The position numbers were made by a program, and so were the translations under genes. A stretch of DNA of 63,158 nt, the filler included, from Hausera hauseri (Eukaryota): NCBI GenBank assembly GCA_046269625.1. It is 11 parts of 11 records of this genome, joined end to end, with 100 filler letters (N's around TTAATTAATTAA, not from the genome) between each part and the next. Parts side by side here need not be neighbours in the genome. Positions count along the whole stretch, not along the records: positions 1 to 4,773 come from JBJURY010440912.1; 10 more parts are not named here. One strand, given 5' to 3'. This document shows, in pieces, positions 1 to 63,158 of the stretch. The notes beneath the pieces were generated by a model that worked only from the letters and a program-made list of their open reading frames with translations, did no database searches and was not told the origin of the DNA. Position 1 is the stretch's first letter. Each line of letters starts with the position of its first letter.

Positions 1-1463
1 ATGCATAAAATACTTGCAATTATTAAGAACTCAGAAACTTCTTGATATGAGTAAAAATTATTCGTATAAAATGTTATTTTACTATGCATAATTTTATCAA
101 CATCTGTAATTAACTAACAATACCAAGAAATAATTCAACTCAGCCGTATTGTCTACGAAGTTATAAAAATAGAAAAATAAAAAGATATTACGAATTAGTT
201 TTCTATAAATATATATATACTAAAACTGAATCGTGAGNNNNNNNNNNAAATCGTTAAAGTCAAACAAGCGGAAAGTTGATAATTATCATTCTTGTGTGAA
301 TAAATACAAATATATCAAGCATTCGCATAAAAAGAGATAAGTGAACATACAGCTATTCTTTGTAACCAAACCTTTGATGTTAATTAATTCCATTCACGAT
401 GATTGTAATTTCCTTCCATAATAAGATATTAGGCTTTTGTATTTTTCCAACCTTCCGCTATATGACTTGTATAAATGTTTAAAATCATACTTTGCAATCC
501 AGAAAAAAGTATGTATAATATTTTTCCCGAAAATTTTTTCATAAAAATTGATGGTGTTCATCTTCAAGGATAATAAAAATAAAATTCACTCTGAATTTAA
601 CATAACGTGTAAGAAAAATGAAATATTAACTTTGAATAATATAGGAATTTTTTATATTCATTGGCAAAACATAAATGAAGAGTGCGAGTATTGCGGTGAT
701 AATTATTTTTCTGTCAAATATTTGTCGTTTGGATACAAAAACAAATATATGCGTCGTAGAAAAACCGAAAATATCTCGATTTTGCCACGCCGAGTGTAAT
801 TGGGTTTTGATAAAGTTCACGAGTAGCCATGCTTACAATACTTTATCTCGGTATTTTGAACGTACATTAAGTCCTTCGCCCTTTGTCTCTTACAAATTCT
901 TTCTTGTTAATGATTTCAGTTNNNNNNNNNNNNNNNNNNNNNNNNNNNNNNNNNNNNNNNNNNNNNNNNNNNNNNNNNNNNNNNNNNNNNNNNNNNNNNN
1001 NNNNNNNNNNNNNNNNNNNNNNNNNNNNNNNNNNNNNNNNNNNNNNNNNNNNNNNNNNNNNNNNNNNNNNNNNNNNNNNNNNNNNTCATAAGCGTAGAAA
1101 CGAATGATGTGGAGCAATGTGACCAGTTGGATGCAAAGATAGGAAGAAGAGTGGGTTGCTTGCGTGTGATTGCTGTTATTTAATAAATGTTAGTGACAAA
1201 TATTATGAGTCTTTTGTTATATTGTAAGAAACATTTCCTGTACATAACATGTTAGTTGAAGTTATGTATGCATATTTAATTATCTTATGTTGTTAATTAC
1301 AGCGAATGTGTGCTCCTGTGAAATATAATAATATTATGTATCAAAACCCATTGACTATGTTATGTGGCTATTAAGCCAATATGTGTAATGAAATATATGT
1401 ATATTTATGAAAGTAGACAAATAAGACACAAAATTTGAAAAACATATAAATTTATTAACATAT

Positions 1464-1913
1464 TTACAAATCGTCCCAACTCTCTTCATCCGAACTGTCC
1501 TCCCATCTGTCATCTCCCATTTTCCTTAGGTTTTGAATGTTTGTAACTGATAACATGTTTCCATAGCCATTGTAAATAATCACTTTTTCATTTCTCGCAT
1601 TGCATTGAAAACATACATTACTGCCACGGTTGATGAAGCAGTTTAAGCACTGCTTATGACCATTGAAACAGGTGTATATTCGAACCCAATAAACTGTATT
1701 GCAGGTTTTATCCAAATGGTCAATTTCAATGGTTTTAATCAATGTTCCATTTTCATCGTAAACTGATGCAAATTGATCTTCTGTGCGACATAATGGGCAT
1801 GATTTAATCTGTTTTGTCCATTTTGTGAAACAGCTTACACAAAATCGATGTGTACAGCTCTTCATTCCGACTGTATTTGTATTTGTTTCAGAATAGCAAA
1901 TGGCGCAGAACAT
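1464..1913 (-). CDS. Small C3HC4 RING-finger protein (probable E3 ligase) with a second degenerate RING-like Cys/His cluster
   Basis: CAIC..CTHRFCVSC..W..CPLCR is a canonical RING-HC. Second cluster: C..GHKQCLNC..CFQC. TATA-like and CCAAT motifs upstream (about 1941-1973); AATAAA just after the stop. Confidence 0.85.
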   Translation of the reverse strand: MFCAICYSETNTNTVGMKSCTHRFCVSCFTKWTKQIKSCPLCRTEDQFASVYDENGTLIKTIEIDHLDKTCNTVYWVRIYTCFNGHKQCLNCFINRGSNVCFQCNARNEKVIIYNGYGNMLSVTNIQNLRKMGDDRWEDSSDEESWDDL

Positions 1914-2373
1914 ATTTTCACAAATTGTAAATCTGTTCTGTTTTATAATTTTTTGAAATAGATATCAACCAATAGAAAATAAGTGTGTGTAATAGAGCTC
2001 ATTATTACAATACAGTTATTTTAGACTGTATGCGTATAAGCATTTATATGAGAGCTGTGTGTATAAGTACATAAAATAGAAGTTTACAATCGTACGAGTA
2101 AATTTATAAGAAGACTGTGTGTGTGGTTTCAAACAAAAATCATAAGACTGGATTGATATGTTAAAGGTTAATTATATATTGTGTATATGATCAAAGAAGA
2201 ATTATCAATGGTCATTTTATTTAAATATATGTTATTTATTTTAACAAACAATAAGTTAAAAATGAAAACAGAATAATAAAGTTAAAACCTGGAATAAAAC
2301 ACAAAGTTTAAAGACATGAATAAATAACTATGTAAAAAGACAAATGAAACATTCAGTTGAAATCACAAATTGT

Positions 2374-2425
2374 GGCCCTAAAGAGGACCGATTTGTACAT
2401 TCCCTATTTGGTCCTAAAGAGGACC
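2374..2425 (-). promoter_or_regulatory. Two tandem histone-mRNA-type 3' stem-loops
   Basis: Minus strand reads taaac-GGTCCT-CTTT-AGGACC-aaata (2425-2410) and aaatc-GGTCCT-CTTT-AGGGCC-acaat (2389-2374). 6-bp stem, 4-nt loop, first copy 48 nt after the stop codon of the Q-rich gene. Confidence 0.75.
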
Positions 2426-2473
2426 GTTTAACATTAACTATACAAACTATTTACACAAAACTATTTACAAAAT

Positions 2474-3693
2474 TTAGTTACAAAAGTATACGGTGCAATT
2501 ATTGAATATATTTGCACCGATACCACTGCTGTACAATCCCTCTGTTTGTGTTCCAGCATCCTCATTTAAGCAATCGGTTTGGATTAATTGATGGTTGCGG
2601 CTCCTCCTTTCTGCATCTTTGCGCAGCTTAAAAATCAATGAGGACTGTTCCGCCACTTTATTCCTCCAATAAGTATTTTGGCGCTGCTGCTCATCCAATT
2701 GGCGCTGCTGCTCATCCAATTGACGTTCTAGATATTTAATTCTGTCCAATAAAGTGTTGTCCTGTTGTGCCTGCTGTTCTGTCTGCTGGTCTGATTGTTG
2801 AGGCTGATGATCTGTCTGCTGGTCTGATTGTTGAGGCTGTTGGTCTGAATGTTGAGGCTGCTGGTCTGTTTGTTCAGGCTGCTCTGGATGTTGTTCTCCT
2901 TGTTGTTGTTGTTGCTGCTGTATTTGTTGTGGATGCTGTGGCTGTTGCAGTTGTTCATCCACATGTTGTACCTGTTGCTGCTTTTGTTGCTGTTCTTTTT
3001 TGGACCGTATTTCGAAGCGCCGGTCTAAATTTTTGTGCCATTTGGGCTCAGCCACATTATCCAGCTTGATGGACTCCAGTGTCTCATCAAGCTGGAGTTT
3101 TTGCCGCATCCTGTTCCGCCTTCTTCGCTCAGTCACCTTCTGACACTGAGCGAAGAAATTTTCTCTTATGGCAATACGCTCCTGCGTATTGTTTGCCTCC
3201 TGTTCAGCAGTCGACAGCTTTTGGATGCGCTGCTTAGTCATGCGCACTTTATTATTGGACGGTGGCATGACTCGTTTCTTCTTTTTCTGAACTGACTCGA
3301 TGATGAAGTCATCATCTGAGTCAGTCAACTGAATGTCCTTGCGGACCTGATTTACTTCGGACTCCTGAACAAAATTAATAACATCATAAATAAATAGATT
3401 ATACTTACTGTTATACTTTTGTCCATATCCACCGGTAATTTCTTCTTCTTCTTTAGTGGCTGGACATTGACTGGCACTTTATCTGAAATGAAATGTAAAT
3501 GTATAATAAAATTAAAATAAAACATACCAATTTGATTTGCTATTTCTATCAACTCCTGTGTCAAGCATGGCTCATACACAGGAGCATCTTTCACAGCACT
3601 GGGCACATACTCCGTGCCCTCTTTCCTTTGCTGCTCCAGTGCAGCGATCACTAGCTTCTGTTTTGTCTCTGAACTGAATTTGATTTTGTGCAT
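2474..3693 (-). CDS. Three-exon gene, 376-aa Gln-rich coiled-coil protein of unknown function (exons 3693-3528, 3482-3409, 3364-2474)
   Basis: GT..AG introns of 45 nt (3527-3483, GTATGT..TTTCAG) and 44 nt (3408-3365, GTAAGT..GTTCAG) join ORFs 3352..3738 and 2474..3328 in frame (1131 nt total). Basic NLS-like runs (KKKKK, KKKKR, RRRRNR), Q/P-rich repeats, coiled coil. Confidence 0.8.
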
Positions 3694-3858
3694 TGTAAGA
3701 AATGACAAAATAATGAGAGACACTAGCTCATATAACAATTTTCAACCAATCAAATTTCGACCAATCAGAATTGAGACACACACAACTTTAGCTTAACTTA
3801 ACTATATAGTTTACTTTATATTTGTGTGAATGTATTTGTCTAAACAAACACACATACA

Positions 3859-4128
3859 TGAATTGTACAGTTACCTAGTGTCACTCACACAGACACATGA
3901 ATTGTACAGTTACCTAGTGTCACTCACTAATACTTGAATTGTACAGTTACCTAGTGTCACTCACACACACATGATTTGTACGTTATACAGTTACCTAGTG
4001 TCACTTACAGACACATGAATTGTACAGTTACCTAGTGTCACTCGCACACACATTAATTGTACGTTATATACTTAATTAGTGTCACTCGCACAGACACATG
4101 AATTGTACAGTTACCTAGTGTCACTCAC
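3859..4128. repeat. Tandem array of 7 copies of a ~30-bp core (period about 37-46 bp)
   Basis: Core TGAATTGTACAGTTACCTAGTGTCACTCAC at about 3859, 3898, 3935, 3972, 4016, 4053 and 4099, with short CA-rich linkers. Confidence 0.95.
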
Positions 4129-4773
4129 ACATAAGAGTGAAAAAGACTATATAGCTTTTGTCTAAACAACACACAAATTTGTCTGGACAGAAATATATTG
4201 TCACTGTATATTTGTCTGTACAAAAATATTGTCAAATTTATGTTTCATTGTAGTTATATCACAATTTGACTGCAGTTTTTGTCTCTGATCAGTCACAACT
4301 TGGTTTCGTCAAACTAATGAAACCATCCTGTCTTGTGTTTTTCACACTTTATGACTCACAGAATTTAAACTGAGAAAGGTTCCAGACGGGGTCCTTTCGC
4401 AAAGACGTCTCCAACACTCACCACCCATTGAGACATTGGCTCAATCTAGGTGTGAGCAATATATTATTTCACACATGCAAAATATTTGCTTGTGCTTTAT
4501 TTATTAAAAATGGCATTATTGTAGATTTCAGACCCTATGATCAGAAATACACTTCATGTGAACACCCGATCTTTAAAAGATTTGTGGATCCTTTCAGCTG
4601 CTGCTTTTTGGGGTCACCATGGCGAATTGTGGTCCACAATTATTTATTTGGCATAGTTTTTACATCGGATTCCCTTCCAGACTCAGACTTCCTATTTATC
4701 CACACTAGGGACCGAGAGACACTACACATCTGTGTGCTTGCTGAGGTAGAAACCTTAAAGCTTTACATAAATG

Positions 4774-9220: not shown

Positions 9221-10300
9221 CTGACACCGGTGAACATCCAGGGAGTGGACATTGAGATAGTGGACTCTTATAAGTACCTGGGTGTTCACCTGAACAATAA
9301 ACTGGACTGGACTCACAACACTCTTTACAGGAAGGGTCAGAGCAGACTCCACCTGCTGAGGAGGCTGAGGTCTTTTGGAGTGCAAAAAGCGCTCCTGGAG
9401 ACCTTCTTTGGCTCTGTGGTGGCATCAGCCATTTTCTACAGGTTAGCTGGAGTGGCAGCTTATCTACAGCTGAGAGGAAGCGATTAGATAAGCTCATGAA
9501 GAAGGCCAGCTCTGTGCTGAGATGCCCCCTGGACACAGTGGAGGTGGTGGGAGACAGAAGGATGCTGACTAAAATAACATCACTGACAGAGAACGTCTCC
9601 CACCCCATGCATGGAACTGTGGCAGATCTGCAGAGCTCTTTCAGTGACAGACTGCTTAATTTTAAATGTACAAAAGAACGCTATTGCAGATCATTCCTCC
9701 CATCAGCTGTTAAACTCTATAACAATCCCTGCTCACAACAATCTTGACAAACATCAATGTTTGTGTTTTACACATTAAACAAATCTATCTCAGTCACTAA
9801 AGAAACAGTAACCTGCTGCAATTGTACATTTCTTGTGTAAATCTGTGTTGCTATACTGAACAACAGGCTTAAAGACAGTGTTTAAATCAATTTTGCACTA
9901 CAAAGAGTCTGACTCAATTTGCAAAGACCAGAGTTCGTGTTCGACCCTTTTGGCACCCCCCTAGTTATGTATCTGTTACGACTGTTTCTTTCCCTAAAAT
10001 TTCATATACATAAATTTGTGTTTTTTTGCTGTACAGTATCTGTTTTTATTTTTTAATGTTCATCTAATTTCACTTTGGTTGTATAGTAAAGTGATTATTA
10101 ATATTTTTTTCTTTTGTTCTTTTTGTTCTATGCTTACTTTTTTATTCCCATTGTCTGTCTCTCTAATTCTATTAATATTACTATAGATGATAATGTCAAA
10201 TGGCAATATGGTGTCTTTCAGGATTGATCTATGTATCCGCTGCTGCCACTACACTGGAAATTCCCCATGTGGGACAATAAAGGCTTTATCTATTTTATCC
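9221..10300 (+). mobile_element. 3' end of Rex1/Babar-type non-LTR retrotransposon (teleost-like)
   Basis: IEIVDSYKYLGVHLNNKLDW..RKGQSRLHLLRRLRSF..RSFLPSAVKLYN. 3' end ..CCCATGTGGGACAATAAAG followed by a TATC-like tail. Confidence 0.85.
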
Positions 10301-14658: not shown

Positions 14659-14847
14659 NNNNNNNNNNNNNNNNNNNNNNNNNNNNNNNNNNNNNNNNNN
14701 NNTTAATTAATTAANNNNNNNNNNNNNNNNNNNNNNNNNNNNNNNNNNNNNNNNNNNNATATCGCGAAGAATCTATTATTATCGTTATATAGCGCCAGAC
14801 CTATATTAATAATTATAACGCGACAGACAGTTGGACAAAATAATATC

Positions 14848-17800
14848 ATGAAAAATAATCAACTGTTTGTTGAGAACTGCTCCCCGAAAAATAAATATAA
14901 AAATAAAGATTTAGAAAATTGGTTATCTTTACAAAGAAATAAAGTACCGTATCAACAAAATATTCTATTGGATTATAATAAATTATGTTCAAAAGAAAGA
15001 GATTGCTGGATAAATGACCGCTATTTAAAATTTAGGATAGATAAGGTCATCGAATACATCACCCTTTATAAAGGAAATGCCGTAGAAAATCTTAACGACA
15101 TTCATGAAGTGATTACTCTTTTCAAAGCAAACAAATTACAAATTGATGATAATCAAACAGTCATAAGAAAACCACATAGAAAAATTACCCGAGGTAGGAA
15201 AAAAGAAAACGGGCAAAAATTACAGAATAATAATCCAAATGACATGGAAATTGGAGATCTGAAAGAAATTGAAACTATAATAGATGATGTTATAAGTTGT
15301 AGTGATAGGTATAATAAAGAAAAGAAAAATGAGAAGGAAGAAGAGAAGACAACAAAAACCGTAAAACGAGAATTGAAACAAATTATTGTTAAAATAAACC
15401 AAAATTCACAAATTGTTATCGAGGTTGGAAAGATAAAAACTATCGCCATGTTGCTAAGGGAGATAGTAGCGAGACATCACATAAAGATAAAGAGCCACAT
15501 GATCATTTACAATGGTAAAAACTGGAAAAGCGAAGATATTATAGAAGAGATCCCTCACGGAGCAACAATCAACGTCATTTGCGGATTGAAAGGTGGGAGT
15601 TCTAACGAGAGTGAAGAATTCGAAAATCGATTACTGGCCAAGGATGAATTAAGATGTGAATTGACAGTCCAAAGAAAATCGCTCATAAACAGTCGATTAA
15701 CGGAGGACGAATTCCAATATCAAAGTAATAGATACGATGAACTTTTTAAGAAATTATCCATGGAGATCAGTACGTTGAAATTAGTTGCCAGAAAATTGAA
15801 AAGAAGAGAAGAATTAGCGGAATTAATCGATGAATCAAAGAACATCGAGATGCAAAATGAAGAAATAATAAGGATGATTCAAGCAAAAAATTTTAGAGTT
15901 TTAGAAGACAAATTAGATATAAAAGCTCAGAATAATTATTTAGCACCTAAGTTAAAAAGGGTGGAACTTCCAAAATTCGGGGGTAATGTTGCCGAATTTG
16001 AAAAATGGCGACAGATATTTAGAACGTGTGTGGATAATACTTCACTTTCCAGCATAGACAAACAGATTCAACTAGAGAACTGTTTATACGGTGAGGCGAA
16101 AAGACTAATTCAAAGCTATGATCTTTCTGAAAACTCTTATAAAGCGGCACTCGAAAAGTTGGAACGTTATTACGGAGGGAATCAGAGAAACTATGCTTCC
16201 CTCATGTCGGAAATTATGGAGTTTCCAAAAATCGGCGTACACAATATTAAAGATTTAGATGCCTTTGCTACATTATTAGATTCAGTCATTGTGAGATTAA
16301 AACATCTAGACCGAGAAATAGAGTTAGAAGGCGGATTGTTATACCAAAATTTAATCCAAAAACTACCTGAGATAATGGTATTGACATGGGAGAGGTATCG
16401 AGAAGATAAAGATAAGAAACGTAATGTACAAGAATTAAAAATATGGGTGGAAAAAGAGGCTGAATTGAAACGGATCGCTGCCGAAGGTGTTCACGGAATA
16501 AATGTTCTAATGCCAAATAAAATCAGAAATCCAGAACGACAAGTTAAAGGTTCATTCTTCACAAATAAAAAGCAAGGTATAGAAAAGTTAACGTACAAGA
16601 TTGGGAATGATGTTGAAAATAAGAGAAATGAAGAAAATAATAATCATTGGAATAAAAATAGAAGATTGTTAAATACTTGTAAATATTTTTTAAACGGTAA
16701 TTGCAAATTTGGTGATTCATGCAAGTTTAGTCATGAAATAAAGGATCCAAACAGTAATACGAATGTAAATCAAAAATATTGTGTTTATTTTCTAAATGGA
16801 AACTGTAAATATGGAAAAGGTTGCCGATTCAAACATGTAAATCCTTCAAANNNNNNNNNNNNNNNNNNNNNNNNNNNNNNNNNNNNNNNNNNNNNNNNNN
16901 NNNNNNNNNNNNNNNNNNNNNNNNNNNNNNNNNNNNNNNNNNNNNNNNNNAAATATTGTGTTTATTTTCTAAATGGAAACTGTAAATATGGAAAAGGTTG
17001 CCGATTCAAACATGTAAATCCTTCAAAAATATCAAAACGAGATAACAATTATTCAAAAAAATTCGATAAAAAAGTAGATATAAAAAATTTATCTGAAGCT
17101 CTCATTAAAGTTGACAATACAAAATCAGAACTAAATGATAACTCTTGTCAAACGTATAGTGATGGCTATTCAGAGAAACATTCGTATATGACGAACATGA
17201 AAAAAGAAAGGTCTAAAGGATCAGATAAAATAGCTCTAAGGACCGTCTCAGTGTATCTGATTAGTAGAAAAAAGAAGATCAAAGTGAACATGTTACTAGA
17301 CGATGCCAGCACGGACAGTTTTCTTGAAGAAGACATTGTCCAATCGTTAGAACTAAGTGGAAAAGTAGAAGATGTTACGGTGGCAGTAGTGGGAGGAACA
17401 CAAAAAAGACAAAAGGTGACCAGAGTTTGCATGACCTTACAAAGTTTAGATGGTAACGTTTGTGAGAAATTTGACGCGTTATCCATGAGAAGACCAACAG
17501 GGTCCATGAAAGCTATTAATTGGGCGGTAAAAAAAAGACAATGGCCATACTTACGAGACATTGAATTTGTGGGAACAGGACAAGGAGAACGTGTAGACGG
17601 AATTATAGGAGCCAATTACATACACCTCCACAAATCTATAAGGGAAGTCTCAGGAAAACGAGGAGAACCAGTGGCTCGACTGACTCCTCTTGGATGGACT
17701 TGTGTCGGAATCCTAAACGAAGGAGAAGATAATTTAATACGAAACAGTCTGGTAAGAACGTATTGGACGAGAGTTGATGAAGTAAATGAAGATATAAAAA

Positions 17801-20800
17801 GATTATGGGAGATAGAAAATTCGGTTGAAGAAAAAGAAAGTTGGTCGCATTTAGATAAAGAAATTCTTCGAGTCGCAAAAGACAAGATGAAGAAAACCGA
17901 AGATGGTAGGTACGAGGTTTCTCTGCCTTGGAAAACAGAAACGGAAAAAATACCAAATTCCAGAAATATGGCTGAAAAAAGGCTAGAATATTTAGAAAAG
18001 AAACTAAAATCAGACAAATCTGTAAAAGTAGCTTACGAACAAGTGATTGAAGATCACATAAAGAAAGGGTATGTGGAGCAAGTGGAAAGAGAAGAAAAGG
18101 GAGCTGATTATTGGATGTTACCGCACTTCCCAGTTGTGAAACCGGATAGATCTACCACAAAAATTAGAATTGTCTTTGATGCAGCAGCAAAAGTAAAAGG
18201 AACAAGTCTAAACGGATTGCTGCATTCGGGACCAAAATTGCAATTGGATTTAGTAGACATCCTGATACGAATGAGAAAAAATGAGATAGTTCTGATTTGT
18301 GACATAGCTGAAATGTTCCTGCAAATCAGCGTTTCACCTAATGACAGAAAATTCCTACAATTTCTGTGGAGAAGAAATGGTGAGATCGAAACATATCAAT
18401 TCACAAGGCTTGTATTTGGACTGAATGCCTCACCGTTCCTAGCACAACTTGTAAGTCAAGCGAATGCAGAATTGTTTGAAGAAAAGTACCCACGGGCGGT
18501 CGAAACGATTAAACAATCAACGTACATGGATGATTGCATAGATTCTGTCGAGACAGAAGATGAGGCTGTAAAGTTATACTATCAGTTGAAAGAGATATGG
18601 GGAACAGCGAAAATGAAGACACATAAATGGTTATCGAATTCAGAGCGATTATATCGCGAGATACCGGATAATGAAAGAGCAAAGGAATACGCTTTCAAAA
18701 GCGAAGTCAATTGCACCTCAAAAACTCTAGGACTTAAATGGGATGTCAAAGAAGACTGTTTGACTTTCGACGGAGGGGGGAGCCATGAAAGTGGATTGAC
18801 TAAAAGAAACGTGCTAAGTGCCTTGGCAAAAATATTTGACCCTCTAGGTCTAGTGAGTACCGTTACCATAGTAGGCAAATGTTTATTACAGGAAATGTGG
18901 TTGAATGGGATTGATTGGGATCAAATGATTCCTGAAGAACTAAGAAAACGTACTACAACATGGTTGAAACAACTATCCGAGTTAGATAAAGTAAAGACAA
19001 AGAGATGGTTAGGAATAAATAATATCAATGATAAGGAGATCCATGTATTTTGTGACGCATCTAGTATAGCTTATGGAGCGGTAGCTTACATTAGATGTGA
19101 AGATAACGGAGAGATACTAACGAATATAATTGCAGCGAAATCAAAAGTTGCTCCTATAAAATCTATATCAATTCCCAGATTGGAGCTGATGGCGGCATGT
19201 ATAGGAGTGAAGCTATGCATGAAGGTATCGAAAGTTCTACAAATAACAAATGAAAAAGTAACATACTGGAGTGATAGCATGAATGTCCTCTGTTGGGTCA
19301 AACAATACTCAAAATACTATAAACCATTTGTAGCGAACAGAATAGGTTTCATTCAGGAGAGAAGTGAAGGATCAAAATGGAAATATATTAACACCAAACA
19401 AAACCCAGCGGACTATCTCTCTCGAGGAACCACTGTGGAAGAAGTTATAAAACTGAATTTATGGTGGGAAGGACCTGCGTTTCTGAAATTAAAAGAAAAG
19501 ACCTGGCCAGAACAACCAAAAATCTTAGAAGAAACGGAGATGAAGGAGAAGAAAGTCATAAAAACGTTTTCAACTCAAACGTATGAAAACGTAAATACTA
19601 CATTAACAAACATTAAAGGTGATTCAGAATGGATTAAATATGTTGATGAACAGATACTAAAAGAAAATAATAAAGAATTATCGAGAGAAGATGTTATTAT
19701 AAACATTATAAAAGGTGAACAAGAAGAACACTTCAAAGAAGAAATTGGTCAATTAAAAAGTGGAAAGGAGGTGAGAAAAAATAGTAAAATTCAACAGGCT
19801 AACCCTATGTTGGATGATAACGGAATAATAAGGAGTAATAGTCGATTGTCATTAATAAGGTATCTTGATTGGTCCATCAAATATCCGATAATATTATCGG
19901 ATAAAATGAAAATTACTAAGTGGTTGATAGAACATTGTCACATACAACATAAGCATTGCGCTGGAATTAACCACATATACGCTATGATGAGTAAAGTTTA
20001 CTGGTGTCCCAAACTTAAAAAATTAATAAAGAAAGTCCAACATGATTGTAAAGTGTGTCGCAAAAACAGTGCTAAGGGAACTCAACAACCAATGGCACCA
20101 TTACCGGAGTTCCGCCTTCAAGAGCCACTTAAAGCGTTTAGCGTTGTGGGAATTGATTTTGCAGGTCCGATTTCGATCAAGAAAGGTAGAGGTGTGTCTA
20201 GAGAAAAGAGATATATATGCCTATTTACATGCTTGAAATGTAGGGCTGTTCATTTAGAATTAGCTGCGGATTTGTCTACAGATTCATTCATACGGGCTTT
20301 TTTAAGATTTATGAACCGTCGAGGAAAGCCGAACATCATATTGAGCGACAATGGGACAAACTTTGTAGGGGCAAACAAAGAGGTTTGTGAAATAAGAATC
20401 GACACGTATGCCGTCAAACAGCAATTAGAAAAAGATGAAATTAGATGGATATTTAACCCACCAGGAACACCACATTTTGGAGGAGTATTCGAAATCATGA
20501 TAAAGGCCACAAAGAAGGCTATGTACAAGATACTAGGAAGTGCCAATACAACAGAGGAAGAATTGTTAACAATATTAATCATTGTAGAAGGTATCATCAA
20601 CTCAAGACCCATCACTAGCACAGTAACTGATTCAAAAGACGATATTATATTGTCTCCAAATCACTTTATCATACCTGGCTATGATGGAAAAATTAACGCT
20701 GAGATTAACGGCACCAGAGAAAGTTCTTATGTCGCACGCTGGCGATATATACAAAAACTGTCAAATGATTATTGGACAAGGTGGAGAGAAGAAATAATAA

Positions 20801-21033
20801 TCGGGTACAGAAACCAACATAAGAAATATGAAACGGTGACAAAATTTAATATTGGAGATAAAGTTTGGTTACTAGAAGATAACTTAATGAGAAATCAATG
20901 GCAAATTGGGACCATCAGTCAAATATATCCAGGAAAGGACGGCATTACCAGAATTGTAGATATTGATATCGATGGAAAGATAATCATCCGACCAGTAAAA
21001 AAGATTTGTAAGGTCGAGAGAGATATATGTTAA
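14848..21033 (+). CDS. BEL/Pao LTR retrotransposon single-ORF polyprotein: leader - ubiquitin-like domain - Gag - CCCH fingers - protease - RT - RNase H - integrase
   Basis: 2061 codons with no stop (one 100-N gap). Gag LKRVELPKFGG..W..F; protease LLDDASTDSF; ARLTPLGW; RT LPHFPVVK..RIVFDA..YMDD; RNase H IHVFCDAS..IPRLEL; integrase H..H..CKVC, GIDFAGP, SDNGTNF, GGVFE. Confidence 0.97.
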   Translation: MKNNQLFVENCSPKNKYKNKDLENWLSLQRNKVPYQQNILLDYNKLCSKERDCWINDRYLKFRIDKVIEYITLYKGNAVENLNDIHEVITLFKANKLQIDDNQTVIRKPHRKITRGRKKENGQKLQNNNPNDMEIGDLKEIETIIDDVISCSDRYNKEKKNEKEEEKTTKTVKRELKQIIVKINQNSQIVIEVGKIKTIAMLLREIVARHHIKIKSHMIIYNGKNWKSEDIIEEIPHGATINVICGLKGGSSNESEEFENRLLAKDELRCELTVQRKSLINSRLTEDEFQYQSNRYDELFKKLSMEISTLKLVARKLKRREELAELIDESKNIEMQNEEIIRMIQAKNFRVLEDKLDIKAQNNYLAPKLKRVELPKFGGNVAEFEKWRQIFRTCVDNTSLSSIDKQIQLENCLYGEAKRLIQSYDLSENSYKAALEKLERYYGGNQRNYASLMSEIMEFPKIGVHNIKDLDAFATLLDSVIVRLKHLDREIELEGGLLYQNLIQKLPEIMVLTWERYREDKDKKRNVQELKIWVEKEAELKRIAAEGVHGINVLMPNKIRNPERQVKGSFFTNKKQGIEKLTYKIGNDVENKRNEENNNHWNKNRRLLNTCKYFLNGNCKFGDSCKFSHEIKDPNSNTNVNQKYCVYFLNGNCKYGKGCRFKHVNPSXXXXXXXXXXXXXXXXXXXXXXXXXXXXXXXXXXKYCVYFLNGNCKYGKGCRFKHVNPSKISKRDNNYSKKFDKKVDIKNLSEALIKVDNTKSELNDNSCQTYSDGYSEKHSYMTNMKKERSKGSDKIALRTVSVYLISRKKKIKVNMLLDDASTDSFLEEDIVQSLELSGKVEDVTVAVVGGTQKRQKVTRVCMTLQSLDGNVCEKFDALSMRRPTGSMKAINWAVKKRQWPYLRDIEFVGTGQGERVDGIIGANYIHLHKSIREVSGKRGEPVARLTPLGWTCVGILNEGEDNLIRNSLVRTYWTRVDEVNEDIKRLWEIENSVEEKESWSHLDKEILRVAKDKMKKTEDGRYEVSLPWKTETEKIPNSRNMAEKRLEYLEKKLKSDKSVKVAYEQVIEDHIKKGYVEQVEREEKGADYWMLPHFPVVKPDRSTTKIRIVFDAAAKVKGTSLNGLLHSGPKLQLDLVDILIRMRKNEIVLICDIAEMFLQISVSPNDRKFLQFLWRRNGEIETYQFTRLVFGLNASPFLAQLVSQANAELFEEKYPRAVETIKQSTYMDDCIDSVETEDEAVKLYYQLKEIWGTAKMKTHKWLSNSERLYREIPDNERAKEYAFKSEVNCTSKTLGLKWDVKEDCLTFDGGGSHESGLTKRNVLSALAKIFDPLGLVSTVTIVGKCLLQEMWLNGIDWDQMIPEELRKRTTTWLKQLSELDKVKTKRWLGINNINDKEIHVFCDASSIAYGAVAYIRCEDNGEILTNIIAAKSKVAPIKSISIPRLELMAACIGVKLCMKVSKVLQITNEKVTYWSDSMNVLCWVKQYSKYYKPFVANRIGFIQERSEGSKWKYINTKQNPADYLSRGTTVEEVIKLNLWWEGPAFLKLKEKTWPEQPKILEETEMKEKKVIKTFSTQTYENVNTTLTNIKGDSEWIKYVDEQILKENNKELSREDVIINIIKGEQEEHFKEEIGQLKSGKEVRKNSKIQQANPMLDDNGIIRSNSRLSLIRYLDWSIKYPIILSDKMKITKWLIEHCHIQHKHCAGINHIYAMMSKVYWCPKLKKLIKKVQHDCKVCRKNSAKGTQQPMAPLPEFRLQEPLKAFSVVGIDFAGPISIKKGRGVSREKRYICLFTCLKCRAVHLELAADLSTDSFIRAFLRFMNRRGKPNIILSDNGTNFVGANKEVCEIRIDTYAVKQQLEKDEIRWIFNPPGTPHFGGVFEIMIKATKKAMYKILGSANTTEEELLTILIIVEGIINSRPITSTVTDSKDDIILSPNHFIIPGYDGKINAEINGTRESSYVARWRYIQKLSNDYWTRWREEIIIGYRNQHKKYETVTKFNIGDKVWLLEDNLMRNQWQIGTISQIYPGKDGITRIVDIDIDGKIIIRPVKKICKVERDIC
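15376..15597 (+). other. Ubiquitin-like domain within the BEL polyprotein (aa 177-250)
   Basis: KQIIVK..IVIEV..TIAMLLREI..IIYNGK..ATINVICGLKGG aligns to ubiquitin by eye with one 2-residue gap and about 19 identities, ending in di-glycine. Confidence 0.85.
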
Positions 21034-26204: not shown

Positions 26205-26837
26205 ATGCAACAAAATTTTTCACGTTTTACAAAAGCACTTCATTTGCATAATTTTGACATTTTTCGAAGGTTTTTCGTTGAGGTGAAAGTGTTCAATGCC
26301 CTGAAGGATAATTATATGTATCTATTAATTGATAAATCGACGAAGGTTTACTTTTTCTTGACCTCATTTTTAACGGTTACATAGTCATGTGCAGCAGTTG
26401 ATCCGGTCGAGCCAGATGAAATCGTTGAGGAAATCACCAAAACGAATCTCAAATTAACTCATATTCTAACGACTCATCATCATGATGATCATGCCGGTGG
26501 AAACAAACTACTTCTTTCTCATTTTCCACTACAGTCAATTGCCGTTGTTGGTTTCGATGATCGAATTGACGGATTGACGTACAAAGTTAAAGTTAATGAA
26601 AAGTTAAAAGTCGGAAACACTTCTATAAAATGTTTATTCACGCCATGTCACACATCCGGTCATGCGTGTTATTTCGTTGAAGACGAACCTGACAATTTCA
26701 TTCTGTTTTCCGGTGATACGGTTTTCGTTGCCGGTTGTGTGAAGTTTTTCGAAGGTACTGCCAAAGACATGCACAAAAATTTACAAAATATCAAAAAATT
26801 ACCGTTGTCAACGAAAATTTATTGCGGACATACCTAA
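26205..26837 (+). pseudogene. HAGH: Glyoxalase II (hydroxyacylglutathione hydrolase), 3'-truncated copy with one 39-nt intron (26346-26384)
   Basis: DNYMYLLID|..AVDPVEP..ILTTHHHDDHAGGN..TPCHTSGH..FSGDTVFVAGC.KFFEG..YCGH then a stop. C-terminal helical domain absent. Arg/Phe-rich N-terminus suggests a mitochondrial presequence; TATAAAA upstream. Confidence 0.9.
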
Positions 26838-45583: not shown

Positions 45584-46565
45584 TTATTGTACAATTCGAA
45601 TAAGACTTAGTGACATAAGATTCAATAGATCAAAGGACGAAGGACAAATTTCGATAAACCGATTAATATATGCGTCTTGAGGCATCAACAATGATCGATC
45701 AATCATTTCTAAAATTGGTCTTACAGTGCCGAAAACTCGAGGATCTAGCAGAACTGTAGCATCGTCTGAGGTTTTATCAAGGATTTTAAGCCATGCCTTA
45801 TTGGGCTGTTCAAAATACCTCATAATTAATTCCTCTTGGTACTGATCGTTTTCAATGTCCGCCAAAATTTCCGAGACTTGCTTATAGAACGTCACAATTA
45901 GGGACGAATTGAGGTTCGTTAGTCGAGAATCGATATTATTAAAGAGTTCCATAAATGCTGCTTTTGTAGTTTTATGCCTTTGATGTCGGTTTATGGCTTC
46001 GAGCATCAGAGAATGTCTATGTACATATATTTCCCTGCATTCCAAACCACCATAAAACGCAGGAGATATGGGGGAATTCCGGTGAGTAATAGGTATAACG
46101 ATGTGTTCTTTCGATAAAAATTGTTGAACTATGTCCGGAAGCTTATGAGACGAAGATTTTGAATAATCACACACATAAGATATGTTAAGCCATGGTGAGT
46201 TCTTTGGCGGAGGATGCGAGCTTTTACTGTCGGACTCATTAAATAATCCAAGTTTTTTATTCGTTATAGGACTACTGTTATTAATAGTTTCGGGAGTAGG
46301 ACATGCACTCAATTGAAATGACACAATCGTCTCATTCGTGCTGTTGGTTAGTGAATTTGTTGTTGATTCGCCCTTAATACTTGGTAAAACATTTTTGTCA
46401 CTGTCTATTTTGGACTTCGTTATTCGATCATTCTCGACTTCACTCTATTTTTTAACGTCACTTATAACCTGTGAATTCTTTTTCGGCCTACCTCTGGGCG
46501 TTTTTGTATGTACAGTTTTAGTATTTAAATGCTTCGGTGCTTTGGATAAGGACTCGGGTTCTATC
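45584..46565 (-). pseudogene. Fragment of an unidentified nuclear-protein gene with an AT-hook
   Basis: TPRGRPKK near 46480-46500 is in frame, across one TAG, with ORF 45584..46324. Confidence 0.45.
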
Positions 46566-57075: not shown

Positions 57076-57489
57076 NNNNNNNNNNNNNNNNNNNNNNNNN
57101 NNNNNNNNNNNNNNNNNNNTTAATTAATTAANNNNNNNNNNNNNNNNNNNNNNNNNNNNNNNNNNNNNNNNNNNNGGATGACATCCTTAAAGAACTCTAC
57201 ACAGCACCATGGTTGGTTTTATTTACTTGTTTCAGCACAAGAAATTGTTGATCAGTTCATGTACCACAGATGTATTCAATTTCTGCTACGAAATTCTGTT
57301 CTTAACTTAACTACATTTAATGATTTTGGATATTGCCGTGTTTCTGCCTTTAATTAAAATTTGTTAACTTAGAATGCATATTGATAATTGATAAAGAAAC
57401 GTTTGAATAAACTTTGCATTTACTGCTTTTAATTTTGGGATTTTCTCAGATTATCGTTGATTATCGCTTTGGAATTTATTTTTCAAGCA

Positions 57490-60400
57490 TTAAAGTGCCA
57501 ACTTAGCAAAGTCCTCACAAATGTTCTCAGTATAGATCTGATAAATGAAACTATCAGTATCCATATACATCAGCTGTATGGACTTGAATATGGGGATCAT
57601 AATATCATAGTGGAATTTGTACATCAAGATCTTCGACACGTGCAGTATTGCCATACTCACATATGGGGTTGTTGAACTCAAGCGATGTTTTCAGCATATG
57701 GATGCTGACCACATTCTCAGCATATATAATGCTGCTGTGGAAGTTGGGCTTGGCAATGAGCATCTTTGCCCGCTTCCACACAAAAATCAGTTCAATGTTG
57801 ATCCTGTTGCGGATATTCTCCAATGTCTTGCCAAAAACGCTGTTGCTGTAAAGCTTAAACTGGTCCTTCTCAAAATCGTTCTTGGCATTTGTCCGCAGCT
57901 TCGTATTGATGTCTATATAGGGTTGCAGTCACATGGACTGACTGAACTGCAGGGCTCTATGGATCTTAGTAATTCGGAGTCCATGTCTAACAGCTTGCAG
58001 GAGATTTATGTAGTTGACTAAATATCTCTCCCTACTATCCAGATGCAGTGCAGCTTTCTGTGCTTTCAATGGGGCGGATGCTTGCTTTCAGGGAGAAAAG
58101 GCAGCTGTCGATGTCTTGTGTGGATACAAGCCGGATATTCCATATCTACCTCCAGTATGTATCCCGTGTCTCCACTGGGATCCAGGTCCAGTATAGGGAT
58201 GTTTTCAGGATGCTCGACCCACTTGAAGTTATTATATGGCAATGGGGCGCTCATTGCCCATACATACAATTTGTTGGCATTCAGGTATGATATATATATG
58301 ACGATTCCTTGGATGGATCATACTGGACTATACACTTGTCGTTGGCCTCGCTATACTGCTGAATGGCCTGTCATATTTTGCCTCTAATGCCTCATCCATC
58401 ATAAGGATCATATCGTAATCCTTCATAATCTGCGGCCTAATACCTGTATAGCGCAGCATAGCTGCCCAACTCATCCATGTAGCTGTAAAGAAGTGAGCCG
58501 CATCCAATGCATGACTTTTCATCGAAACATCCCTAAAACTCTGAAAGACATCCATCAGCAGCAGCACGTCCGTCTTGAGGTATATGTCACTATATTCTCC
58601 TAATGTTCGGTATTGGAATGCATCCCAGACGTTCTGAGCATGCTGGTAATCAGAATCGCTGATATCGCAATCAGAGAGGATATTGTAAAATTCCTTCTTG
58701 GTCGGCAATGAAGTCTCATCCAGTATTCTCCATGAGGTTATGTAGTCATAGGGAAACACGCCTTTCTTCTTAACGAGGTCAAATGCAGCGGGAAAGAACC
58801 GCTTGGTCTCCTTGAGTTCTTCTGCAGGGAAGTTCTTCACTAAACTATCAAGTGAAGACGACATGAAACGGAAACTGTCTATGAAGCGAAGCCTGATTTT
58901 CCCAACGTGCTTCGTAAAGGTGGTGTACTTCTCCTCACTATTAGGGATCACCTAAATGTTTCCTTCAATGTTGTCCAGTTCCCGAACAATGAAGTGGGAA
59001 TCATAGCCTCTGAAATTATGGAACACTACAGGCACATATGTACGTTTTGCAATGCAGATTGCAGTTGTTGCATGCCGCGCCCCAATATTTGCTTGTAAAA
59101 TGGCAATGATCCCTGACTTTATGATTCTCCTTAGTGAATGATTTGGAGAACAAGTAATATGCAGTTGCCTTGCGCCATTCTTCTTCTTGCTTCTTCGAAA
59201 TACTCATTGTATCCTTATGCTACCGCTGCATATCGCCAAGCCTATGAGCCATATCTTCAAGTCGTTTCATAAAGTGTGCTGCTGCGCCTAGACCCCTGAA
59301 TAGATATGGTTCACTGTCCAGTCCTTTGGCATACATGCAATATGGTGAGAGCTTATGATATTGGTTTGCCGTTGTGCTGCTGTGTTGGGGATTAGGACTG
59401 TAACTCTGAACTGGGTGCATGATCGCTTCAAAGTTGCAATAGATAACTATTGGGACCTTGAGCTTCTTCTCGAACTCCTTGAATTCAATGTAGTCCTCCT
59501 TTGGGAAATCAGGCCTAATACAATAATTGTTATTGCAGTACATCTTGTGCTCTTTCAGCTTCAATACAGCTACATCGCCGCTGAAATGAGACAAGCATCG
59601 TTTACATATTTCTATTTGTCCATGATGTTTCGTAATTTGTGATCTGACTAGCCGCTCAAAGTCTTTGATCCAAACCTAATGTTTCTTTTCTCCATCGTCT
59701 AGTAGGAGTAGATTCCTATGATCTTCCAATTCAGTATCTCATATGTGCAGGGATAGAATTTATCATCCTTATCCAATTCCAAGATATTGATGGACATGTT
59801 GACTTTTCCTAATTTCTTGGCTTCATCTGTGGATGGAGGGAACTTGATACTTTGGAAGTCACAGTTGTGCTGCGAAGCATGATTTTGATCCGTTACGAGT
59901 TTTGATAGAATAGCATACATGAAACACATGTTATCGTTATTATGGATCTTGACACTCTTTTTTTTGAATGCCCTATTGGATTCTTCGCCATCAACATTGA
60001 TGTATGTGGCCTCCAGTTTCATATTCACCTTAAGGGAATTGAGTTCAGCCATGTTGTCCTTAAGAATTCCCTCTGTCTCGTCCTTTGTGTATAAAAGGAA
60101 GTCTTGGAGGGTTGCTTGGCCAGTTGTCTCAATAACATATCTGCGGCATTCCTCTTTAATGCTGCCGCATCAACTGGCTGCACTTTGGCTTTTTGATGGA
60201 GCCGCTGCGTCTGATGTGGCTGCGCCTGATTCCTCTGCGCCTGATACTGCTGCGCATGATGCTGCTGAACGTTTCAATTCTCTACTATGCTTCACAGCTG
60301 CTGCACCAGATCCAGCAGCATAATGCGAAGCAGAATACTGCGAAGCATCATACTGCGAAGCAGATGCATCAAAATTATGTTTCTCATTAAAGATGGCCTT

Positions 60401-60862
60401 CTTTGACTTTGATGCGAAGTGACTCAAATGATGTTTGTGATCATAATAGAACTGCATGTAATCTGCACCGCATACCGTCGCACATCCTGGGCATATATAA
60501 TAGAGGATCCTATTGGATTTGTATCCATAATAGCTCCTCATGGTATTATGACAGTTCTGAGGGTTGTCTATCGCACATGTGCAAAACACGTATGAACTGC
60601 ATCTTTGATTTTGCTTAGGCATGGAAGTCATTATTGGCATAGTGGTATTGAATATTTGTTTCTTCGACTTGGTGAAGGGAATCATGTGTTGTTTATGGGC
60701 ATTGTAAAAGTCTTCATATTTGGTCTGGCACACTATCTCACATGTAGGGCATATATAATACTCAGTCCTGTTGCATAGATGGCAGAATTATTTCTGCATA
60801 ATATTGTGGCAATTTTCAGGCTCGTGGATTTGAGCCAAGCACTGTTTGTATAGATTGCACAT
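57490..60862 (-). pseudogene. Polinton/Maverick-type protein-primed family B DNA polymerase with endonuclease-VII-like motif, decayed
   Basis: VRDHCHFT..GAACNNCNL; LRFIDSFRFMSSSL; KGVFPYDY; YLKTDVLLL; YLNANKLYVWAM; KLYSNSVFGKT; YMDTDSF. The upstream Cys/His-rich ORF is in frame across one TGA. Confidence 0.9.
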
Positions 60863-61792
60863 CTAAGAATCAACCAATTATTTGAGGAGCACAAATAAAA
60901 ATCTCACCATTCGTGAAAGTGATTTTGGAAATAATGAAACATACAGCCATATCAATGCATACTGCTTCATTTATTGATTTTTTCGAACATTCTAGAATAC
61001 TTTGGTTTTAATGCTTCAAATAAATTAAATGCACTTGGGCGCCAAATTTAAGAGGTTGCAGACATGGGGAATCGATTAAAGCCATCAGATTCTTCAAATA
61101 ATGCATGCTTGACCGAATATTATCGAATTTTTCAATGTTTTATTCATTTCGAGACTGTTCCAAACACTTTGCCCACAATATTTTTGGTCTACAAAGGTTT
61201 TCGGACATGGGGAATCCGATGGTGCTATTCGAATTCGATCGAAAAATCGGCTTTTTTATTTAAGCCTCTTTTCGAATATCTGACGTCATATTCGGATTCT
61301 GCGTATAAGGCTTTCTATCCCTCTACGCTTTTGGATTTTTGCTTATATTCGAATAGAAAATCAATTATTCGAAAATTGATTATTCGAGTTTCCGAATATC
61401 TCACATCACATTCGGATACAGCACATGTTAGTTTCTGTGTGTACGCTTTTACATTTTTCGATTTTCACTTGCTTATGTGCTGAAATCAACTTCAAAGGTT
61501 TTATCGGAAAACCGTTATTATTGATTAAAGCACACTTGCACATATGCGACACGTCTGCAAAGTATTATATAGATGCACTAAGACATGGGAAATCGACTGG
61601 CTCTCTCAGATTTCTCAAAAAATTTATGAGTGTCAAGATAATCGATACTATTCGGTGAAAATCGACATTTATTCGAGTTGTGCATCGAATTTCAGAATTG
61701 TGAGATGGAAGACCCGAGTTACAATGTGGCACTTCCTATCTGTCTCCGCTTGATGTTGTATCGAATTTTGACTCCTTAGGACCTAAAAAACT

Positions 61793-62249
61793 ATGGGAAG
61801 TCTGCACCACTTGCACTTTGGATCGATATTATTCGAAATCCACTCGATCGATTTAAATTCTAATTGCACATTCGCATAGTGCACCGGATTTCCAATCGAT
61901 TGCACCCGGTTCCATGTGCTAATCATCAATATCGGCAATATCGGAAATCCGATATTATTGATTTTTGCACACTTACACATGTGCTGCGCACCTGCACAGT
62001 GTATACCAAGATGCATCTTGATGTGCACTATGGATTGGCACACTATCCGGATCGATTCGATCAATTATGTAATGTGTAGCTATCGATTTGTGAAATGTGC
62101 AAAAATGTTCATAGCAACGGTACTTAAGGGCATCGTCGCCTAGCACAGTACTGATCGATAGTGTTCCATGTACACTATCGATTGGCACATGTGCTATATT
62201 GATTTCATTGATTCTCACACCCCCATCCGGGGTGGTGCAGACTTCCCAT
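61793..62249. mobile_element. MITE with perfect 18-bp terminal inverted repeats
   Basis: ATGGGAAGTCTGCACCAC (61793-61810) and GTGGTGCAGACTTCCCAT (62232-62249); interior is non-coding and repetitive. Confidence 0.8.
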
Positions 62250-63158
62250 TTTCATACTACTCACGACACATTTGATCGAAGATGAAGATATCCAAACAGC
62301 AATGGATATTGTCAACAGAAACAACAAAGTTGACAATACAGAAGACACTGAAAAGTCAAAAGGCTGTTCAACTGTCGATTTGGACGAGACAAAAGTAATC
62401 TGGAAAATGCAAAATGCAAATCAGATGGAAATTCCAAGTGCAGTATAAAAAGCAATGAAATTAAAAGATTTCTTCAAAATATTGCATTTGTCGAACACAA
62501 GTTCAACAATAGTCAAAAAGGAGGTTGCAAAGGACGTATATGCCAAGATACAGCAGCACAAACCAACTGTACCGATGGAGCACAAAATATCGTTCAGTCA
62601 AATATAATCAAAAGAACACTAATACAAGAAAATGGCTAGCCACGGACAAGAAAACGCGGACTGGAACAATTGGCGAAGGCCGTTAAAGAGGCAAACAGTA
62701 CGCAGGAACGTTTTGTCACTACGGACAATGTAAAGATGAAGTGGCAACAAGAATATAACCGAGGGAAAAAGTCGGTTGAATCTGAAGCTGGAAACCAGAA
62801 CAACTGTTTAAATGATATAGTTGCACAATCCACGATATCCTGAATTCCGTGTGAATCTCGACAAAAGATGGGAAATTCAACCCAAGGAAAAGCCAAAGGA
62901 AAATTCGAATGAGGTCCATCAGTCAAAGCAACAGTTGGCCGAAGTTAAAAGGAAGTTGAAAGAATTTTTTGATTCATTGTGTTGAATTTTTTTGAAAATA
63001 TTATAAGATAGACTTTGCTTATATATCTGCTTCTTTAATTAATGTTTATGTAGTGACGATAACCCCTCTCTCCTATTCCCAACCTCGACATATATAAATA
63101 AGCCATTTTTATAATACTTTGTGAACCGTAATTCTAACAAACATCAATTACAAAGGAT

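Follow-up and report, generated by a model that had tools for sequence, protein, structure and literature searches.

Tandem histone-type stem-loops behind a predicted intron-containing, non-histone gene of Hausera hauseri

Replication-dependent histone mRNAs are described in PMC4604434 as the sole known cellular mRNAs without poly(A), and CLIP of human SLBP is reported there to have yielded no real non-histone target. The genes encoding these mRNAs are without introns according to PMC5706932. A survey of 2,281 species (bioRxiv 10.64898/2026.10.14.759114) characterizes the hairpin by a G-C at pair 2, a U at loop position 3 and a folding energy of -7 to -10 kcal/mol, with a metazoan median stop-to-hairpin distance of 30 nt, and PMC12803260 gives a distance of 31-57 nt for C. 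elegans. H2A.X is described as having a dual 3′ end, with the stem-loop used in S phase and a longer poly(A) form otherwise (PMC5100578). Our literature search, which covered titles and the starts of abstracts and had most subscription papers outside its reach, returned no report of such stem-loops on a transposon gene, a viral gene or any other gene that does not encode a histone. Pandey is said to have reported in 1990 that introns favor poly(A) ends.

Here we describe two histone-type hairpins behind a non-histone gene in a 63,158-nt stretch of the H. hauseri assembly GCA_046269625.1 (hereafter the window). The window consists of short contigs joined by N spacers, so sequences on either side of a gap cannot be taken as linked; the finding is located on a single gap-free contig of 3.7 kb (1086-4773).

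Two hairpins and the gene upstream of them

Both hairpins are located on the sense strand of a gene for a 376-aa protein (stop codon at 2476-2474), with a period of 36 nt:

2410..2425, minus strand: hairpin 1, AAAC-GGTCCT-CTTT-AGGACC-AAATA, 48 nt past the stop
2374..2389, minus strand: hairpin 2, AATC-GGTCCT-CTTT-AGGGCC-ACAAT, 84 nt past the stop
2235..2240, minus strand, with a second copy at 2216-2221: AATAAA, which may serve as an alternative poly(A) end, about 135 nt past hairpin 2

The first-pass annotation had described two tandem sense-strand hairpins with a 48-nt gap and a 36-nt period, and their exact sequences and positions were recovered. Each 16-nt hairpin has a 6-bp stem with G-C at pair 2, a U-A closing pair and U at loop position 3; the stem of hairpin 2 contains a U-G wobble at pair 3. 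Both stems fold in the 244-nt downstream region with pair probabilities of 0.81-1.0, and the folding energy of the hairpins is -8.6 to -9.2 kcal/mol. The CUUU loop had been named as the variant used in C. elegans, and PMC1924863 confirms CTTT.

Chance is excluded as the source of these hairpins. At up to two mismatches, hairpins of the GGTCCT type match only twice in the window, against 0.04 expected, and none of 100 shuffles reached two. The paired class GGYYYT-YTYN-ARRRCC, with a chance rate of about 1e-5 per 100 nt on one strand and 0.013 expected per window, has these two as its only members, and no further histone hairpin was found elsewhere in the 63,158 nt. The Rfam Histone3 model (RF00032), the check that had been suggested, matched hairpin 2 with 23.3 bits (E = 0.0045) and hairpin 1 with 16.1 bits (E = 2.1), both short of the 34 bits of its gathering score. 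This shortfall does not settle the matter, since a true histone H1 gene, locus L027 of the metagenome scan described below, also falls under the cut-off at only 22.7 bits.

The gene upstream of the hairpins was modeled as three exons:

3528..3693, minus strand: exon 1, from the ATG (spliced model)
3483..3527, minus strand: predicted intron 1, 45 nt, GTATGT...TTTCAG
3409..3482, minus strand: exon 2 (spliced model)
3365..3408, minus strand: predicted intron 2, 44 nt, GTAAGT...GTTCAG
2474..3364, minus strand: exon 3, to the stop (family alignment, structure prediction)

The two predicted GT-AG introns (45 + 44 nt) are needed for the frame, which holds across them to give a product of 376 aa, in agreement with the intron-containing gene first proposed. 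The spliced model aligns with the intronless homologue P0004 from residue 44, across both junctions. Exon 3 comprises an acidic patch, a basic stretch, a conserved helix-helix-strand region of ~90 aa, Q-rich repeats, a predicted long helix and a C-terminal NCT motif. When 125 residues of this exon were used for an HMMER search, seven matches were returned, six of which are unnamed members of one family (34-43% identity, E = 2e-10 to 2e-5); the seventh, a TniQ-domain protein, was rejected as spurious and outside the family. The six homologues share the acidic patch and the ~90-aa conserved region, and they end in the NCT motif where complete.

Pfam contained no family above the cut-off for the 376-aa protein, and PHROGs contained none. 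Word-based homologue searches gave no match for exon 3, for the neighboring RING ORF or for a host-like ORF at 45587-46444; the Atlas gave no usable match, and PDB sequences and phage records gave none. Among viral contigs there was no relative of the 376-aa family, the RING ORF or the polymerase described below. Structure prediction produced helices, with a pTM of 0.28 for the whole exon 3 and a pLDDT of 74 and pTM of 0.51 for the conserved region; compared with viral and PDB libraries, the predicted fold had no match at E ≤ 0.001 (best Z 4.9), which proves neither a new fold nor a function. No Pfam histone family was found in exon 3, in the frame of exons 1 and 2 or in the six homologues, and the same scan detects H1 in L027. 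The gene is real and its product is no histone, as had been claimed.

The surroundings of the gene on the same contig are as follows:

3746..3765, minus strand: two ATTGG (reverse CCAAT) boxes, at 3765 and 3750, upstream of the ATG; weak
3714-3740, unstranded: a 27-nt inverted copy related to the 39-nt unit, just ahead of the ATG
3848..4131, unstranded: a 39-nt unit repeated in tandem about seven times, upstream of the gene
4374..4772, plus strand: a divergent open frame of 133 codons that runs into a gap, with no family match and of uncertain coding status
1464..1922, minus strand: the neighboring intronless RING-finger ORF, 152 aa (zf-RING_2, E = 1e-8)

Tandem CCAAT boxes had been named as a mark of this promoter. 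Two ATTGG are indeed present, but they do not set the gene apart from the RING gene, and the evidence is weak because ATTGG is also found at the latter (1973) and occurs at a background of 0.24 per 100 nt. The plain AATAAA ascribed to the RING neighbor was located at 1456, without a hairpin; this ORF is likewise found in many variants. The 39-nt tandem units could be binding sites or replication-origin repeats.

Variants of the locus and a putative mobile element

Words of the hairpin contig are contained in 13 public runs, none of which is recorded as RNA. Four of them (X1-X4) were placed, over region 1090-3840 only, and X5-X13 (shares 0.05-0.09) were left unused. In X1, a run whose type is not recorded, 6,124 contigs match 1090-3840 at 80-100% identity: 1,194 at 99+%, 1,788 at 95-99%, 1,969 at 90-95% and 1,173 under 90%. 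These contigs cover both genes and their flanks and contain many indels and internal deletions (e.g. 3193-3629). As judged from these sequences, the RING gene and the 376-aa gene are spanned by a large diverged family, and dispersed genomic copies are the likely source of the X1 variants. Three joints in other variants, each seen in a single contig, carry purine-rich inserts.

The differences among copies were tabulated in 442 rows, of which the best-supported 40 were used as the variation set, a selection that cannot speak for stem invariance among copies. Fifteen of the best 40 rows fall in exons of the 376-aa gene, ten of them synonymous against an expected fraction of 0.19 (p = 9e-5), and eight fall in the RING gene, five of them synonymous (p = 0.007); the rows are non-independent and the expectation ignores transition bias. 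When both genes are pooled, 15/23 rows are at third codon positions (p = 0.002). The protein appears, at the sequence level, to be under purifying selection.

A variant of hairpin 2 with the loop CTTC, changed at position 4 only and retaining the stem and the ACAA flank, was found in one contig of X2, two of X3 and two of X4; one X2 contig spans 2364-2531, that is, the ORF end together with both hairpins. The profiles of X2-X4 correlate with that of X1 (Spearman 0.92-0.97) at 1/51, 1/790 and 1/827 of its depth. Because they track X1 and may be carry-over, these runs are not independent species and provide no between-species conservation; the idea that they represent other species was dropped, as the profiles resemble dilutions of X1. 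The higher contig depth at the hairpins than at the AATAAA was also left unused, since contig depth does not allow one part of a gene to be compared with another.

A second member of the family is located near the end of the window, on another gap-free contig (57176-63158), together with a polymerase oriented away from it:

62595..62982, plus strand: broken (frameshifted, truncated) second family member (tblastn E down to 5e-17 with P0009)
57606..58951, minus strand: broken protein-primed type B DNA polymerase (Pfam DNA_pol_B_2, E = 5.8e-6 and E = 0.0048)

No hairpin was found at this truncated paralogue in the 176 nt left before the window end. Neither contig, both being shorter than a whole element, contains a recognized integrase, packaging ATPase, protease or capsid gene, and no terminal inverted repeats or target-site duplication were found within 1086-4773 or 57176-63158, both of which are bounded by gaps or by the edge of the window. 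The 376-aa gene is likely, if unproven, to belong to a mobile and perhaps Polinton-like element, to judge from its sequence context. A Polinton/Maverick-like class is our leading guess, suggested by one broken copy on the other contig. The earlier guess of a selfish or viral gene gains support from the many diverged variants and from the broken paralogue beside a protein-primed polymerase.

The contig 57176-63158 also carries a cysteine-rich repeat ORF (60170-60787), upstream in the polymerase region, and an 18-nt perfect inverted repeat (61793-61810 / 62232-62249) between the polymerase and the paralogue. Elsewhere in the window, a long polyprotein frame with repeated CCCH-type motifs (14759-21033) is presumably a Pao/BEL-like retrotransposon. 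We take the fragment at 9221-9747 to resemble the end of a fish LINE ORF; it may be host or contaminant DNA among the parts. An intronless ORF of metallo-beta-lactamase fold (26385-26837; Pfam Lactamase_B, E = 8e-13) presumably resembles glyoxalase II.

The same layout in metagenome loci

Metagenome contigs were scanned for two histone-type hairpins 10-40 nt apart, which gave 19 loci. Four of these (L019, L021, L022 and L029), with a GC of 0.53-0.65 and without histone-type flanks, were dropped before any count, and 15 AT-rich loci with 17 hairpin clusters were kept. The scan says nothing on the frequency of true histone genes because single hairpins are invisible to the tandem pattern. Fifteen of the 17 clusters are located behind a same-strand ORF (≥75 codons, no more than 250 nt away) and none behind an opposite-strand ORF. 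In Pfam, these 15 ORFs comprise one linker histone (L027), one DDE_Tnp_1_7 transposase (L015) and 13 without a family above the cut-off. The Rfam cut-off was passed by five metagenome loci, with 36-44 bits.

The L027 gene (388-1101), a histone H1 gene, itself has two tandem hairpins, which contradicts the earlier statement that such hairpins are normally single. That non-histone genes can carry them gains independent support from 12 metagenome loci in about five unrelated groups; the loci are not all independent, six of them belonging to a single gene family and another three having a sample or the hairpin region in common. Only L015 among the metagenome loci is shown to be a transposon gene: its intact-looking 601-aa DDE_Tnp_1_7 ORF (1478-3280, minus strand) is followed after 76 nt by seven canonical hairpins with a 24-nt period (1239-1398, minus strand) and then by a purine-rich tract. 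We take this transposase to be of the piggyBac type. Of the 71 repeat pairs at L015, the 25 listed include no terminal inverted repeat.

Six further loci (L017, L018, L025, L026, L028 and L030) form a family of cassettes whose small, cysteine-rich genes match no known family. Several of these carry one or two histone hairpins at their ends, and a shared TCTAC motif then stands where a purine-rich element would be expected; a tRNA-Met(CAT) gene is located near the contig end in four of the six. In L020, a 78-codon basic ORF (1835-2068, minus strand) may encode a small basic chromatin protein; it comes with a purine-rich tract and two hairpins, which reach 44 bits in Rfam. The two ends of this contig repeat, as for a tandem unit of ~3.3 kb. 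Hairpin arrays without an upstream ORF are present in L014 (983-1252, six hairpins) and L016 (1779-2172, nine hairpins). None of the metagenome loci showed homology to the proteins of the window. Hairpin patterns in viral contigs gave 0, 11, 1 and 1 loci, none of which had histone-type flanks on inspection.

All tandem clusters in the 15 AT-rich loci have U first in the loop, and the C-first loop of the window would therefore work only if the host SLBP accepts C. The 3′ flank lay outside the search pattern. With the window included, it reads AC after the last hairpin in 13/16 tandems and after the first in 2/16, which makes the distal hairpin the likely end-forming one and the upstream ones probable extra protein-binding sites. 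Pair counts on 15 hairpins were left unused, since the hairpins had been picked by a paired pattern and the count is circular.

A possible histone-type 3′ end and comparison with known systems

By analogy with known histone messages, we propose, with a probability of roughly 0.45, that the message of the 376-aa gene would be bound by SLBP at both hairpins, be cut a few nucleotides past hairpin 2, use the AATAAA as a fallback and be expressed in S-phase, dividing or germ cells. Judging from the asymmetry of the flanks, the distal hairpin with its ACAA flank would set the 3′ end, and the proximal hairpin 1 would be an extra, internal SLBP site. The RNA end is predicted at ~2369-2371, by analogy with PMC1924863, and the AATAAA at 2240 would give a fallback polyadenylated form, as with H2A.X. 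The protein of the element might then be made when and where histones are made, in S phase and in dividing or germline cells, and S phase would be the best time for a DNA element to copy itself. From these sequence features it is likely that a selfish gene has borrowed the SLBP pathway.

The message may instead be polyadenylated near the AATAAA at 2240, with SLBP bound to the internal hairpins and controlling translation, storage or decay rather than cutting. The two introns favor such a message, as does the missing downstream element: in the 40 nt past hairpin 2 there is no purine-rich element (at most 6/9 purines), and the AATCC core seen in C. elegans is absent. The distal hairpin, however, has the AC flank typical of a cut site, likewise found in 13/16 tandems, and C. 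elegans histone genes with a downstream AATAAA mostly end after the hairpin according to PMC1924863. We consider this closest alternative unlikely, though worth taking seriously; whether the end is cut or polyadenylated, the hairpins are probably a working SLBP site.

Mobile elements capture host fragments, as is generally known, and the element could have captured a piece of a histone-gene 3′ region and duplicated it, leaving a passive relic with no function now. Over 21 nt the hairpins share 90% identity, a level to be expected after a recent duplication, and hairpin arrays without any ORF are present in L014 and L016. Nevertheless, the spacer and flanks are unlike between the two hairpins, yet the stems pair in both, and the sole variant seen alters a free loop position alone. 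The sense-strand placement 48 nt past the stop also argues against a relic, as does the recurrence of this layout in about five unrelated groups of non-histone genes, with 0/17 clusters on the wrong strand; we regard a relic as a poor explanation.

It is improbable that the gene is one member of an expanded multigene family of the host (e.g. germline or proliferation genes) that uses a histone 3′ end for cell-cycle timing with no mobile element involved. The introns, compact promoter and synonymous bias would fit such a family, and the 3.7-kb contig has no transposase, integrase, capsid, terminal repeat or target duplication, but contigs in their thousands match both genes and the flanks at 80-100% identity and show internal deletions there; this and the broken paralogue beside a broken protein-primed polymerase speak for an element.

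Tandem sites, many variants and the arrays of six to nine hairpins in L014, L015 and L016 would suit an abundant decoy RNA that mainly titrates SLBP and lowers the host histone supply; two sites per message, at a normal 3′-end position behind a protein under apparent purifying selection, make this very improbable. A chance match or assembly artefact can be dismissed, even in a window pieced from short contigs whose repeats are prone to mis-assembly, given 0.013 expected per window and independent public-run contigs that cover the hairpins, one of them linking the ORF end.

Returning to a histone-type end formed at hairpin 2, a wider idea can be put forward tentatively, at somewhat less than even odds: several unrelated kinds of mobile DNA element in animals, among them the probably Polinton-like gene of the window, a piggyBac-type transposase and other cassettes of several genes, may on repeated occasions have recruited the histone stem-loop/SLBP pathway, often through tandem hairpins, to give non-polyadenylated S-phase or germline messages. 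L015 is its clearest test case. If this were true, histone mRNAs would no longer be the sole animal mRNAs ending in a stem-loop, and the gene in the window would show that a spliced message can end in a histone stem-loop. Mobile elements would have a simple route to couple expression to DNA replication, and their messages would be hidden from poly(A)-selected RNA-seq, so that their activity would be undercounted. Such genes would be natural substrates for two questions: can a gene with introns form a histone-type 3′ end, and what is the role of a second hairpin?

Among known systems, Polinton/Maverick elements differ in that no integrase, ATPase, protease, capsid, terminal repeat or target duplication was seen on the contigs. 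They are alike in the protein-primed type B polymerase on the contig of the paralogue, a link made by one broken copy located 59 kb away in the window and on another contig, and the small separately promoted genes, the RING gene and the short tandem array would fit them. H2A.X is a single-gene histone, whereas the gene in the window is non-histone and multi-variant; the two share a hairpin and a downstream poly(A) signal within one gene.

From the metazoan histone 3′ end the locus differs in its non-histone protein, two predicted introns, two hairpins, C at loop position 1, lack of a purine-rich element past the distal hairpin and many diverged gene variants. It is like that 3′ end in the 6-bp stem, the 4-nt loop, G-C at pair 2, U at loop position 3 and the U-A closing pair, and further in the A-rich 5′ flank, the AC 3′ flank of the distal hairpin, the short distance from the stop and the energy of -8.6 to -9.2 kcal/mol. 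The host is AT-rich and most likely an invertebrate animal with very short introns; intron lengths of 44-45 nt, the TTTCAG acceptor and the C-first loop are reminiscent of nematodes. The C. elegans histone 3′ end has a CTTT loop, CDL-1, AATCC and AATAAA (PMC1924863). Unlike in C. elegans, AATCC is absent and the AATAAA is located ~135 nt away rather than directly after the element, but the CTTT loop and the downstream AATAAA are shared, and the 48 nt from stop to hairpin lie within the 31-57 nt given in PMC12803260.
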